From Nitrosopumilaceae archaeon (GTDB lineage: Archaea; Thermoproteota; Nitrososphaeria; Nitrososphaerales; Nitrosopumilaceae): DNA of 64,000 bases. The stretch is from assembly GCA_965207375.1 (NCBI GenBank), contig OZ242274.1, positions 1,184,001 through 1,248,000 of the forward strand. Reading direction: 5' to 3'. A program made the position numbers and the translations under genes. Positions within the stretch are counted from its first letter, which is position 1. Each line of letters begins with the position of its first letter. A model generated the notes under the pieces. It had not been told where the DNA came from. It saw only the letters and a program-made list of their open reading frames with translations, and made no database searches. Shown here in pieces: positions 60,218 to 64,000 of the stretch.

Positions 60218-60422
60218 CGATATTTGGATCTTTTTGGTATTGCTAGGTGTGAAAATTAGGGAAATTGGCTAATTACGAATCAACTCTATGGTAGGATCAA
60301 AGAGCTTTGGCATATCTTTGTATACCTTTTATCAAAATTATTTCAACCTTGATTTGGGAGACCTGAGTATGTACGTCCGTATTTATCAAATCCTTAATAG
60401 CAAATCTCAAAGCTATGGTGCA

Positions 60423-61925
60423 ATGGTACAAAAAACAAAACTGCTCATATTACCACTTGTTCTGACGCTGATATCAGTACCGTTAGCATTTGGACAAGAT
60501 ACATCAGATACCATGCAAGGTCTTGATGATGTAGAGTCTTATGTGATATCGCCACTAAAGCAATACAATGCAGGTGTACTAGCAGAACAAATTATCTGTG
60601 AAAATAACAAAACATTGATGCAGCGACCAAATTCAGAACCTGCATGTGTCTATGAGACATCTGTAGAAAAGCTAGAGATACGCGGATGGGTTGTACTGTA
60701 CACACAGGACACTGTTTCATTATCTCCGGAACGTGATACCTCGTATACAGTATCAGAATCATCGGATGTTACTTTTAGTGCACCGTGTCTTTTCTGTTCC
60801 ACCCTAGATCTGTCCAGTTTCCCAAAGATTGGTGAGATAGCTACTGCTACACTTCATGTACCTAGCAGTACGCATATCAGTATTCCAGAAGATTGGGGTA
60901 TGAATGTGTATTTTTATTCTACTGATCCTGATGCCGTAGAATTTCTAGATGTGGAACCGACAACAGTCATATCCAAAAACGATGGTTCTGTACAGGATAT
61001 CTATAGAATGCCATTTGTAACAGAAAGCAACAAACCTACAACATTCTCAATCCAGTTCAAGATTATAAAAACTGGTCAGTTTTCCATACACGGTGGAATT
61101 ACAGATAATGAATCAAATTTTGTTACTCTTTTGGTAACAGAAGATGGCACTGAGGAATTTGTTCCACAATATGCTCCTCCACCTGTTCTAACCGAACTGT
61201 ACGCCAAAGAAATCAAGGAATTGCGTGTCATAATTGACAAGAGAGGCGGCGTTGGACCTGAGATGATAAACGTTAGAGACAGTGAAATTCTGATGGATAT
61301 AATACGATTTGAGGGACTGTTAACTGAACAGGAAGCTGAAAAATATTTGTCATTTGTATTACTAAATACAGAGAGACTATACGGGGAAGAATCCCTTACA
61401 TGGCGTCAAGTAGAACAGATTCTCTTAACTGATGAATATCTTGCAGAATACATAGATCATAAAACACGTCAGGATAACCGACCACTACAGGTTCCTACAG
61501 TATACTATTCTGATTGGGGTGCAGACGGATGGAATGACGGCTATGACAGTACACTTGAGGACATTAGAAGATATCTAGCACAGGGCAACTATATGACGCA
61601 ATCCCAGATAGACCAATACATCAAGGATTATATCGCAGACGATTTCCTTGATGTCCAAAATTTTTCTTTTTCATTTTTGCCCAAGGCATATGCTGCAACT
61701 ACCATACATCTAAAGGGATGGATATTAGCAGATCCCTCATTTAGTGACAAGACCGATGACCGTATCAGTGGCATTGAAGTATGTGGGCAAAAAAAGATCC
61801 CAAATGGTTACATGACACTAAAAACCACGCGTAATATCCTTGCGTGTGATATTACTGATGAAAATGGTAAATTTGGTAAGTGTTTACGTCGTGAACACAT
61901 GATAACCACCCCTGCGCTGTACTAG
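60423..61925 (+). pseudogene. Secreted thaumarchaeal protein (SPLKQ..C domain), truncated by insertion at ~61875
   Basis: Signal peptide, ISPLKQYNAGV..IIC...PACV...LEIRGW motif. The last ~16 codons derive from MITE/IS110 sequence. Confidence 0.7.
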
Positions 61926-61929
61926 TGAT

Positions 61930-62040
61930 GAATCGACCCCTGATTAGGTATGGGCTACGCGCCCTTGGTCGTGAATGGGGCAATCCGAGCTGCTGTGTAA
62001 TTGGGCTACGCGCCCTGATAGATGTGTGCAGCTTCCGATC
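61930..62040 (+). ncRNA. Predicted bridge/seek RNA of the IS110 element
   Basis: Two stem-internal loop-hairpin units capped by identical GGGC-TACGC-GCCC hairpins; loop strands match the target and donor junction sequences. Transcript ends are unknown. Confidence 0.8.
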
Positions 62041-62074
62041 CGTCAAAACATCCGTAAGGAGGTGAAAAGAAAGG

Positions 62075-63166
62075 ATGAAAACATACATTGGAATAGACAT
62101 TGGAAAGAAAAAGTGTGACGTATGCGTCATAAATGGTACAGGACGAGTACTTGAGACCTGTCAGTATATGAACACGGTAGCAGATGCTAAAAAGTTTGCA
62201 GAAACCATGGCACGAAAATACACGGGAAATAAAAAAACATGCAGTGCTGCATGTGAAACTACAGGCAACATGTGGAATGTTACCTATGCTAAATTTGAGG
62301 CAGCAGGTATACCAATCAAGCTTGCAAATACGTACAAGATGGCCATAATTGCCAAGACTGGTAAAAAGACAGACAAGGTGGATGCACAAAAGATAGCACA
62401 GGTATTACGAATGGATATGATTCCAGAATGTTATGTACCAAAACCGGACATACGAGGAATACGTGCAATGATACGACAGCATATCAAGATAGTACATGAT
62501 AGGACACGAGTGATAAACAGAGTACGCAGTCTTTTAGACAGACATGATGTCTCAATTGATACAGTACAAGTATATGCAGTAAAGACAATGCAGTATCTAG
62601 AGTCTGTATCTCTTGATGAAATACATGATGAAATAATTCTGCAGCAATATGTCCGACAGATCAGACATCTGACCGAAGAGTTGACCAAAATGAATGATTA
62701 CATAGAACAAGAGGCAGCAAACAACGAGTATGCCAAACTATTGACAAGCATGACAGGGATGGGAACATATACTTCATTGTTGCTAGCAGTCGAAATTGCA
62801 GACATTTCAAGATTTGATAATCCAAAGAAACTTGTTGCATGGGCAGGTCTGTGTCCTACCATACACCAGTCAGGAGATCAAAAATATCTTGGAAGGATGA
62901 AGAAACTAGACACCAACAGTATAGTGAATTGGGCAATGTGCGAGGCAGCAAATGTGGCAGTAACACATGACCCTAGGATGAAATCAATATACGAATCTGC
63001 AAAAAGGCGACATGCAGACAAGCATGCACTTGCAGTTGTTGTAGTTGCAAACAAGATGATAACAATATCATGGCACATTCTGAACACAAAGACACCATAT
63101 TCGTCACACAATACAAGATTGTATCAGCGCAAGCTTGCTAAATTGGAAAAGGCACGTCAGAAATGA
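62075..63166 (+). CDS. IS110-family DEDD recombinase/transposase
   Basis: YIGIDIGK, ACETTG, KTDKVDA, AWAGLCP..HQSG. GGAGGTGA RBS upstream; intact 363 aa. Confidence 0.96.
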   Translation: MKTYIGIDIGKKKCDVCVINGTGRVLETCQYMNTVADAKKFAETMARKYTGNKKTCSAACETTGNMWNVTYAKFEAAGIPIKLANTYKMAIIAKTGKKTDKVDAQKIAQVLRMDMIPECYVPKPDIRGIRAMIRQHIKIVHDRTRVINRVRSLLDRHDVSIDTVQVYAVKTMQYLESVSLDEIHDEIILQQYVRQIRHLTEELTKMNDYIEQEAANNEYAKLLTSMTGMGTYTSLLLAVEIADISRFDNPKKLVAWAGLCPTIHQSGDQKYLGRMKKLDTNSIVNWAMCEAANVAVTHDPRMKSIYESAKRRHADKHALAVVVVANKMITISWHILNTKTPYSSHNTRLYQRKLAKLEKARQK

Positions 63167-64000
63167 TTTGTACCTGTCAAATCCGGTATTAAGCTTGCTA
63201 GCGTTAGCTATAAATGATATACTAAATAATTAGGCACGGAACGGAAACGCAATAGGGATACATCAAGGTACGCGCCGGGGTGGTTAACATAGATGTCTAA
63301 AATTACCATAAATTCAAAACAACGTTAACAGATACATCTGTTTTCATGTGTGGTATCGTGGAGCAATGCCGGACTAAATTATCTAGAAGAGATGATAAAA
63401 TACCTCTAGATGGGTAAAAACGATGTTAACCCTTACTAAAATTTTAGTCACAACAAGTACAAAGCGATTAAGAACCATTTTCAGGCCCCTAATCACAATT
63501 ACCTTTGAGTAATCGACTATCATAGTATGTAATGTAATAATTGTAATTAAAAGTTATAATATTTTCAGGCATAAAAAATACATAAAATAGGATTTGAACC
63601 CACGAAACCCTACGGTAATCAATTGATAGTCGATCTATTTTGACTAGGTTCACAAATCCATGCAATGTTGAATCTAAAGGCATGTAATTTATTTCCAAAA
63701 GATTTTTGATTCTGGATTGAAAAGTTTGCAAATAAGCTTGATCAAAGACCATTGACAATAGGCAAGTCATGGGGAAAGATTACAACATATGCTTCACCAG
63801 AAACTGATCTTGTAGCAAATCTAACTAATCATCAATAGTTTTTCACATGTTTTTAAAAATTTCACACATATTTTTACTTTTTAAAAATTTTCAAATACTA
63901 GACCATATTATAAAAAAATCATGATAATTGGCAAATTACAAAACAACCAAAAGGCAATCAAATTAGACGTTGAGCTTTATTGCATCAATTGCAACAAAAA

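Follow-up and report, generated by a model that had tools for sequence, protein, structure and literature searches.

Does the non-coding left end of an archaeal insertion sequence encode an RNA that directs the recombinase to its target, and can the rules of that pairing be read base by base from one genome? The question is raised by a 64,000-nucleotide (nt) stretch of a Nitrosopumilaceae genome (contig OZ242274.1), hereafter the window, in which an initial annotation had described an IS110-family element whose left end folds into two units carrying four loop strands, or guides, that match the junctions of the element itself. Our analysis supports an RNA-guided insertion sequence (IS) of the IS110 family with the guide code worked out below, a reading to which we give a probability of roughly 85%, and places its borders a base or two away from those first proposed. 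The mechanism itself is known, having been published in 2024 and since catalogued at scale, and the value of this locus lies in its particulars: a guide code that is readable from a single genome through empty sites, four copies and a naturally retargeted sibling, in a mesophilic archaeon and with a recombinase of 363 amino acids (aa).

Borders, core and recombinase of the element

The element spans 61894-63295, or 1402 base pairs (bp) counting one TG, and is present in the genome as four full copies and several fragments. The features that define it are the following.

61894..63295, + strand: insertion sequence, AACACATG to AACATAGATG, with the right-hand TG counted; all four full 1402-bp copies lie between these motifs
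61892..61893, + strand: left copy of the TG core dinucleotide; empty sites have a single TG, occupied sites a TG at both junctions
61899..61912, + strand: left subterminal inverted repeat, ATGATAACCACCCC, preceded by the 5-nt extension AACAC (7 nt with TG counted)
63277..63290, + strand: GGGGTGGTTAACAT, the right subterminal inverted repeat; after it come the 3-nt extension AGA (63291-93) and then the TG core (63294-95)
62075..63166, + strand: recombinase gene, 363 aa, intact

Borders were tested on another full copy (L002), whose flanks were joined by script in two registers and then searched against the genome. With left target arm, TG and right target arm joined so that the right flank directly follows ..ATAGATG, the construct matches uninterrupted paralogues, the best at 100% identity over 168 nt without a gap. 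Eight of the 11 spanning matches are gapless in this register, and under the register of the initial annotation each of the 11 takes one gap more. A motif search brought up two exact empty sites (..CGTCGTGCCTAG..), both without AA after the TG. For the window copy and a further full copy (L003), the same reconstruction produced no spanning match. Since empty sites hold one TG and the L002 join is gapless, TG is the core common to target and donor, and whether 61892-93 is assigned to flank or element is arbitrary. Insertion is site-specific at this short shared core, with one TG in empty sites, two in occupied ones and no further duplication. In an alignment of the four copies, the left junction is ..GTG-AACACATG.. 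and the right junction ..AACATAGATG-(T or C)CT.., the position of 63296 being T in the window copy only and C in the other three. The AA at 61894-95 belongs to the element and the base at 63296 to the flank; in agreement with these borders, contigs of public sequencing runs break at 61891 and 63295.

The register first proposed took the element as CACA..GATGT (61896-63296), the target as GTCGTGAA/CTAA and the circle junction as ATAGATGT/CACA, with no shared core. In its favor, both 8-nt identities that it relied on are present in the window copy (GTCGTGAA at 61968-75 and 61888-95; ATAGATGT at 62018-25 and 63289-96), and ..GTGAA precedes CACATG in all four copies. The lack of AA in the empty sites, the extra gap in every spanning match and the C at the position of 63296 in the other three copies speak against it, as do the guides of homologues described below, and we regard it as highly improbable. 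The empty sites give a target of ..CGTCG-TG-CCTAG.. in its place, and the circle junction is now predicted as ..ATAGA-TG-AACACA.., that is ..AACATAGA-TG-AACACATG... The junction proposed for detection by polymerase chain reaction (ATAGATGTCACA) would not be found because its register is wrong, and experimental tests need the corrected target and circle junction since the original primers and target would fail. Other cores (GT, ATG and AA) and an element start at 61876 were considered first and were ruled out by the empty sites; a 20-nt likeness among the left flanks of the copies was likewise rejected as part of the element, being the inverted repeat of an IS66-family element, i.e. the target.

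Inside these borders, the reverse complement of 63277-63290 is ATGTTAACCACCCC, identical to the left repeat at 13 of 14 positions, and the subterminal repeat arrangement is kept in homologues with different sequences.

The recombinase is an intact member of the IS110 family, as had been proposed. It matches Pfam DEDD_Tnp_IS110 and Transposase_20 (E-values of 1.6e-27 and 4.7e-21, both above the Pfam cut-offs), and with NCBIfam NF033542 (‘IS110 family RNA-guided transposase’) it scores 223.8 bits, the cut-off being 140. In an alignment to solved structures, D8, E61, D100, D103 and S266 fall on D11, E60, D102, D105 and S241 of IS621 (numbered as in the paper; the structure chain numbering is offset by 2), and these five residues are invariant in 10 homologues, so that both domain content and the catalytic DEDD plus Ser set place the protein in the family in the broad ISfinder and NCBI sense. 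Compared with individual members, it scores 73 bits and 26% identity to IS621 and 42 bits and 21% to IS4321, the only IS1111-type representative compared. The closest homologues come from metagenome-assembled genomes of Nitrosopumilus, and the host genome contains archaeal amoA, well in agreement with the ammonia-oxidising archaeal host suggested earlier.

The guide RNA and its proposed pairing with the DNA

The RNA is encoded in the left non-coding end, upstream of the gene, and its parts are listed here.

61928..62043, + strand: structured core of the guide RNA (bridge or seek RNA), about 116 nt; outer stem 61928-35/62036-43 around two stem-internal loop-hairpin units
61944..61950, + strand: 5′ strand of the target loop; UUAGG pairs with the right target (C/T)CTAA (+ strand), UA with the TG core (A:T, U.G)
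61968..61973, + strand: 3′ strand of the target loop, GUCG plus UG; sense of the left target arm plus core, pairing with the - strand
61974..61975, + strand: target-loop AA that follows the core, a position of handshake type; it matches the two bases with which the element starts (61894-95) rather than the target
61994..61998, + strand: 5′ strand of the donor loop; UGUGU pairs with ACACA (61895-99) at the left end
62018..62024, + strand: 3′ strand of the donor loop, AUAGA plus UG; sense of the right end plus core (63289-95)
62056..62062, + strand: ribosome-binding-like motif GGAGGTG, 12 nt before the start codon

The motifs from which the two units had been proposed are all present, namely the stems CCCC/GGGG (61937-40/61977-80) and AGCTGC/GCAGCT (61988-93/62028-33), the hairpin GGGC-TACGC-GCCC at 61952-64 and again at 62003-15, and the short complements TTAG (61944-47) to CTAA (63297-300) and TGTG (61994-97) to CACA (61896-99). 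The single-sequence fold holds both units. Homologues with 36-69% protein identity were gathered from public genomes and metagenomes (42 of 401 in the genome tally, which includes the unpublished genome G282, from which no locus was taken), and 12 of their left ends were aligned. Their RNAalifold consensus is an outer stem enclosing two stem-loop-hairpin units, with 97% of 300 cells paired over 25 pairs, 15 of which show compensatory changes on both sides. None of 500 shuffles reached any of the pairing measures, and slid controls were 30-50% paired.

A covariance model built for this structure (R1) scores 130.8 bits at the window RNA, its one match in the window; over 48 sources it matched 33 times and over 80 metagenome loci 59 times, the matches adjoining the recombinase gene directly upstream and on its strand. 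The right end (127 nt) has no match to the model. Rfam 15 returned nothing relevant at E-values up to 10 for 61000-64000, a blank that is uninformative because a genuine IS621 locus also yields no bridge-RNA family. The same genome holds at least seven further IS110-family genes, more distant at 25-41% identity, and among those searched the model matches one only (L036, 71.4 bits).

The 88 sources with matches were re-searched together, and the resulting 88-row alignment (A4) supplied the four loop strands, each of which was compared with the DNA of its own element and of foreign elements; as the homologues are mutually related, the counts that follow overstate independence. For the right target, the donor 7-mer of the element itself served to anchor the right end in 47 of the 88, which yielded 33 unique guides, and the reverse complement of the 5′ strand, from its third base, was set against the 6 nt directly after the TG of the right end. 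At least five of six positions agree in 22/33 own pairs against 5/944 foreign pairs, and at least four of six in 30/33 against 38/944. The two inner bases of this strand are mostly CA, otherwise TA, CG or UG, all capable of pairing with TG, which fixes the core independently of the empty sites. Pairing of the homologous guides from the base directly after TG, with the inner bases on TG, is also what the register of the initial annotation does not predict. For the left target, a guide could be parsed, with 75 nt or more of upstream sequence, in 74 of the 88, giving 46 unique 8-mers (6 nt plus TG); at least seven of eight positions agree in 28/46 own pairs against 52/1894 foreign ones, after exclusion of foreign pairs differing by two nt or fewer.

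On the donor side, bases 2-6 of the left end are the partner of the 5′ strand, whose variants track that end (TGTAT with ATACA, TGCGT with ATGCA, TAAAG with CTTTA, GCCTT with AAGGC); the full 5/5 is reached in 12/32 own pairs against 95/922 foreign ones, an enrichment of only about fourfold for a short guide. The 3′ strand is represented by five 7-mer variants (ATAGATG, ATAGGTG, ATGAGTG, ACAGATG and ATGGATG), and the 7-mer of an element recurs 1050-1600 nt downstream in 35 of the 42 elements for which sufficient downstream sequence was available. The comparison of own with foreign guides supports covariation with the junctions among homologues for each of the four loop strands.

The dinucleotide that follows the target-loop core behaves differently. 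Across subfamilies it tracks the start of the element (AA with AA.., AC with ACTTTATG in 7/7, GA with GAAGCG in 1/1), and in L062, L090, L104 and L108 it differs between guide and genomic target, as expected if it does not specify the target and in keeping with the handshake guides of IS621; this mismatch is a further point against the original register. The claim that all four guides match their own junctions is therefore literally true, with the qualification that only the first 6 or 7 nt of each 8-nt identity are guide plus core. The final AA or T is not target- or donor-arm pairing as had been meant: the eighth base of ATAGATGT derives from the flank and is C in the other three copies, and its match is taken as coincidental because the donor post-core position shows no family-wide signal.

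The same structure could be read as a 5′ leader that regulates only the translation or stability of the recombinase, with the protein picking the target and the flanks forming a protein-recognised site. GGAGGTG is kept in 11 of the 12 aligned homologues, and in the single-sequence minimum-free-energy fold, though only there, it pairs with CCACC of the left inverted repeat, as such a leader might. Loop strands that change along with the flanks over dozens of guides while the stems stay paired, two copies in one genome that are 98% identical and yet differ in both guide and target family, and relatives in the family that have been found by experiment to be RNA-guided (PMC11208160, PMC11187229) all argue against a leader function alone, which we consider very unlikely.

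Under RNA guidance, the target unit would pair through UUAGG-UA with the + strand of TG-(C/T)CTAA and through GUCG-UG with the - strand of GTCG-TG, the predicted target taking the form ..GTTTACGTCG-TG-CCTAGATT.., and the donor unit would pair through UGUGU with ACACA of the left end and through AUAGA-UG with the complement of the right end plus core. The recombinase, with its DEDD/Ser set, probably binds the guide RNA and, by analogy with IS621 and ISEc11, would carry out strand exchange at the TG common to both DNAs, joining the circular form to ..GTCG-TG-CCTA.. sites; AA after the target-loop core could pair with the first two bases of the donor once strands have been exchanged. In this genome, sites of that form are the left terminal inverted repeats of IS66-family elements and related miniature inverted-repeat transposable elements (MITEs).

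Expression may depend on a sequence in the right end.

63209..63214, + strand: TATAAA with TAGC in front of it, at 82 nt from the right end; candidate for an outward-reading archaeal promoter

Identified by eye in the right-end alignment, this TATA-like box recurs as TAGC-TATAAA in 13 right ends from the closest clade, always 82 nt from the end, and the neighbouring sequence varies. A promoter at this position would read across the circle junction into RNA and gene, and if so, guide RNA and recombinase would be switched on only after the circle has formed.

Targets, retargeting and the probable history of the window copy

The flanks of the window copy come from two different mobile elements.

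61876..61891, + strand: left flank, the first 16 nt of an IS66-family left terminal inverted repeat (GTAAGTGTTTACGTCG), holding the left-target arm ..GTCG
63296..63336, + strand: right flank of the window copy, the right part of a MITE-like repeat of about 110 bp, TCTAAAATTACC...GATACA
63337..63455, + strand: 3′ end of an IS66-family element with its right inverted repeat, 85-91% identical to the 3′ ends of IS66 copies

The natural target, ..ACGTCG-TG-CCTAG.., lies within the left inverted repeat of an IS66-family element. Uninterrupted copies of the left-flank repeat read GTAAGTGTTTACGTC(G/A)TGCCTAGATTTTGACC and form the left end of a repeated element of about 1.57 kb whose open reading frame (ORF) matches Pfam DDE_Tnp_IS66. 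This element has a 469-aa ORF with a weak zf-IS66 match besides DDE_Tnp_IS66, at least eight copies, and inverted repeats of the form GTAAGTGTT(T/A)ACGT, an uninterrupted example being locus L013 (G000:C1:1811522-1813060). The MITE-like repeat has dozens of copies in the genome (..AATTTC(A/G)TG(T/C)CTAAAATTACC..); its ends resemble the IS66 repeats, and two target-like sites, (A/G)TG(T/C)CTA(G/A)A, lie inside it.

A second full copy, L004, is 98% identical to the window copy and carries a left-target guide of UUUUUUG-UG instead of UUGGUCG-UG, a difference of three substitutions. Its flank, ..ATTTG-TG, matches its own altered guide. The target belongs to a second MITE family, ..TTGTTCACGTAAGAGTTAATTTGTG.., whose uninterrupted relatives read ..GTTAATTTG-TG-(C/T)C(C/T)A.., i.e. 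..AATTTG-TG-.., and a site of this kind also contains a left-end fragment. Contigs of one public run show the three substitutions as well, beside the window form. We read L004 as a natural retargeting of the guide, a conclusion drawn from these sequences.

In the window, parts of an IS66-family element are found at 61876-61893 and 63337-63455, and IS66 3′ ends lie about 1.4 kb downstream of their own left repeat. The first 5 nt of the right flank (from 63296) pair with the right-target guide, with one G.U pair. Most simply, the window copy would have kept its original left junction, the right junction being secondary: the element may have inserted into an IS66 left repeat, after which a deletion would have run from its right end to a downstream TG-TCTAA in a MITE, a half-matching site that fits the right-target guide only. 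Recombination at half-matching sites has been reported for IS621 (bioRxiv 10.64898/2026.08.31.748434), and by analogy the same may have happened here.

Further copies and neighbouring features were noted. The full-length copy L003 (G000:C1:875835-876923) has one in-frame TAG in its recombinase gene. In the fragment G000:C1:555713-556224 (L005, L010), the 51 nt between the two identical hairpins are deleted, which removes the left-target and right-donor guides, and the same joint (61950 to 62002) recurs among the contigs of run X4. In runs X1 and X2, contigs join window position 62014 to 63305, skipping 1290 nt from the second hairpin to the MITE-like flank; a diverged left-end fragment ending at the equivalent of 62014 (L008) may be the source. 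Upstream, an ORF of 545 aa with no Pfam match (window 60288-61925) is interrupted at 61875 by the IS66 repeat, and its paralogue at G000:C1:1349207 extends beyond the interruption point. Downstream, a tRNA-like match at 63579-63663 on the minus strand, with a long variable or insert region, scores 26.8 bits against the Rfam threshold of 29, and ARAGORN reports no tRNA there.

The altered copies bear on whether the system, once RNA-guided, is now inactive in this genome, with the window copy as a rearranged relic. Flanks that do not belong together, a full copy with a stop codon and several fragments, one with the hairpin-to-hairpin guide deletion, would all fit such a history. The proteins of the window copy and L002, by contrast, are 100% identical and open and that of L004 is open at 98%, so that three of the four full copies are open, matching unoccupied targets persist in the genome, and guide variants coexist in one public run; we consider a relic unlikely, though less so than the leader.

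Several results weigh against an RNA-guided element with this guide code, in addition to the relatedness of the homologues and the shortness of the donor 5′ guide. The fold energy of the RNA is ordinary (z = -0.47, with 65/200 shuffles folding at least as well). Three right-target guides fit poorly, L065 at 0/6, L057 at 1/6 (it fits if shifted by one) and L084 at 3/6. The two bases after the donor-loop core give no signal against the target, with 9/33 identical at the first position by an eye count. A search of the assembly for circle junctions or tandem copies, in the corrected or the original register, returned 0 matches, which would not be expected to appear there, and no joint of right end to left end is present among the listed contigs of four public runs, which cannot show transcript starts, strands or rare circles. 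The window copy is not a simple insertion, its right flank (MITE) not being the partner of its left flank (IS66). No RNA sequencing run matched the sequence, an outcome uninformative either way, and production of the guide RNA in cells is presumed from sequence and is counted on this side as well.

Comparison with IS621 and the IS1111 group

In IS621, of the IS110 group, the bridge RNA lies upstream of the gene and presents a target loop followed by a donor loop, each ordered as stem, left guide, hairpin and right guide, with the left guide pairing with the bottom strand (PMC11208160, PMC11208158). The archaeal element resembles IS621 in its DEDD plus Ser catalytic set, in the upstream RNA of its left end, in a target loop that precedes the donor loop, with stem, guide, hairpin and guide in each, in two bases after the 3′ guide that match the non-cognate DNA (the handshake), and in the absence of target duplication beyond the core. 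The initial comparison with IS621-like loops holds insofar as the first loop reads the target and the second the element ends; the guide order, however, is the reverse. In an IS621 copy on an Escherichia coli plasmid (L166), the left flank ATCGGGTCT has its counterpart in the 5′ strand ATCGGGCCT, and CT-AC at the right junction is complemented by GTAG, whereas the archaeal 5′ strand is complementary to the right flank and the sense of the left flank stands on the 3′ side. Read on the gene strand, the archaeal core is TG (CA on the opposite strand), unlike the CT of the IS621 clade; its subterminal inverted repeat is 14 bp long (13/14 matching), where that of the IS621 type is absent or 2-3 bp; and an outer stem encloses both loops, whereas IS621 as described has a separate 5′ stem-loop. 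Protein identity is 26%, and the host is an archaeon. Compared with the IS110 group in the narrow sense (IS621/ISEc21 type), the element shares the upstream RNA but not the guide order, the short repeats or the CT core.

The IS1111 group (ISEc11, ISPa11 and ISKpn4, with their seekRNA) is described as having 11-13-bp subterminal repeats with 7-bp left and 3-bp right extensions (PMC11187229), and Siddiquee et al. report the reversal of guide order between IS110 and IS1111 types (PMC11187229). The archaeal element has long subterminal repeats with the extensions TGAACAC (core counted on the left) and AGA, carries the top-strand complement 5′ of the bottom-strand match in its RNA, and shows natural reprogramming between relatives, as in that group. 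The IS1111 non-coding RNA region lies downstream of the gene, with rare upstream exceptions, among which the available text names ISMtsp17 without describing its RNA (PMC11187229). Here the RNA lies upstream, so that the repeats with their 7- and 3-bp extensions and the guide order agree with the IS1111 group and the RNA position does not; the protein is no closer to IS4321 (42 bits) than to IS621 (73 bits). The element belongs to the IS110 family broadly and to neither described group, being a hybrid of IS110- and IS1111-type features.

As in a known IS110-family element, the natural target is the inverted repeat of another mobile element; here, unlike there, the target is an IS66-family or MITE repeat in an archaeon and the guide code comes from covariation rather than experiment. 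Such targeting of one insertion sequence by another may shape the repeat landscape of ammonia oxidisers. Archaeal IS110 recombinases are numerous, with 662 in one bioRxiv survey, and predictions of bridge RNAs cover tens of thousands of loci. In the literature searched we did not find this combination of features, which may be listed in Supplementary Table 5 or Data 2 of Durrant et al., Supplementary Fig. 2 of Siddiquee et al. or the catalogue of bioRxiv 10.64898/2026.10.21.760802. Durrant et al. propose that the RNA moved between element ends (PMC11208160); the mixed features found here bear on how the two groups relate, with RNA position and polarity uncoupled in one element. The clade occurs in Nitrososphaeria genomes and in soil and sediment metagenomes. 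The IS621 promoter is formed at the junction, and the candidate box in the archaeal right end would be analogous in effect. One possible view, which we hold tentatively and at somewhat under even odds, is that these elements form a third architectural class of the IS110 family, with an upstream two-loop RNA in an outer stem, the guide order of IS1111, a TG core, subterminal repeats of some length and a promoter contained entirely in the right end, living in IS66 and MITE repeats and retargeting by a few guide substitutions.

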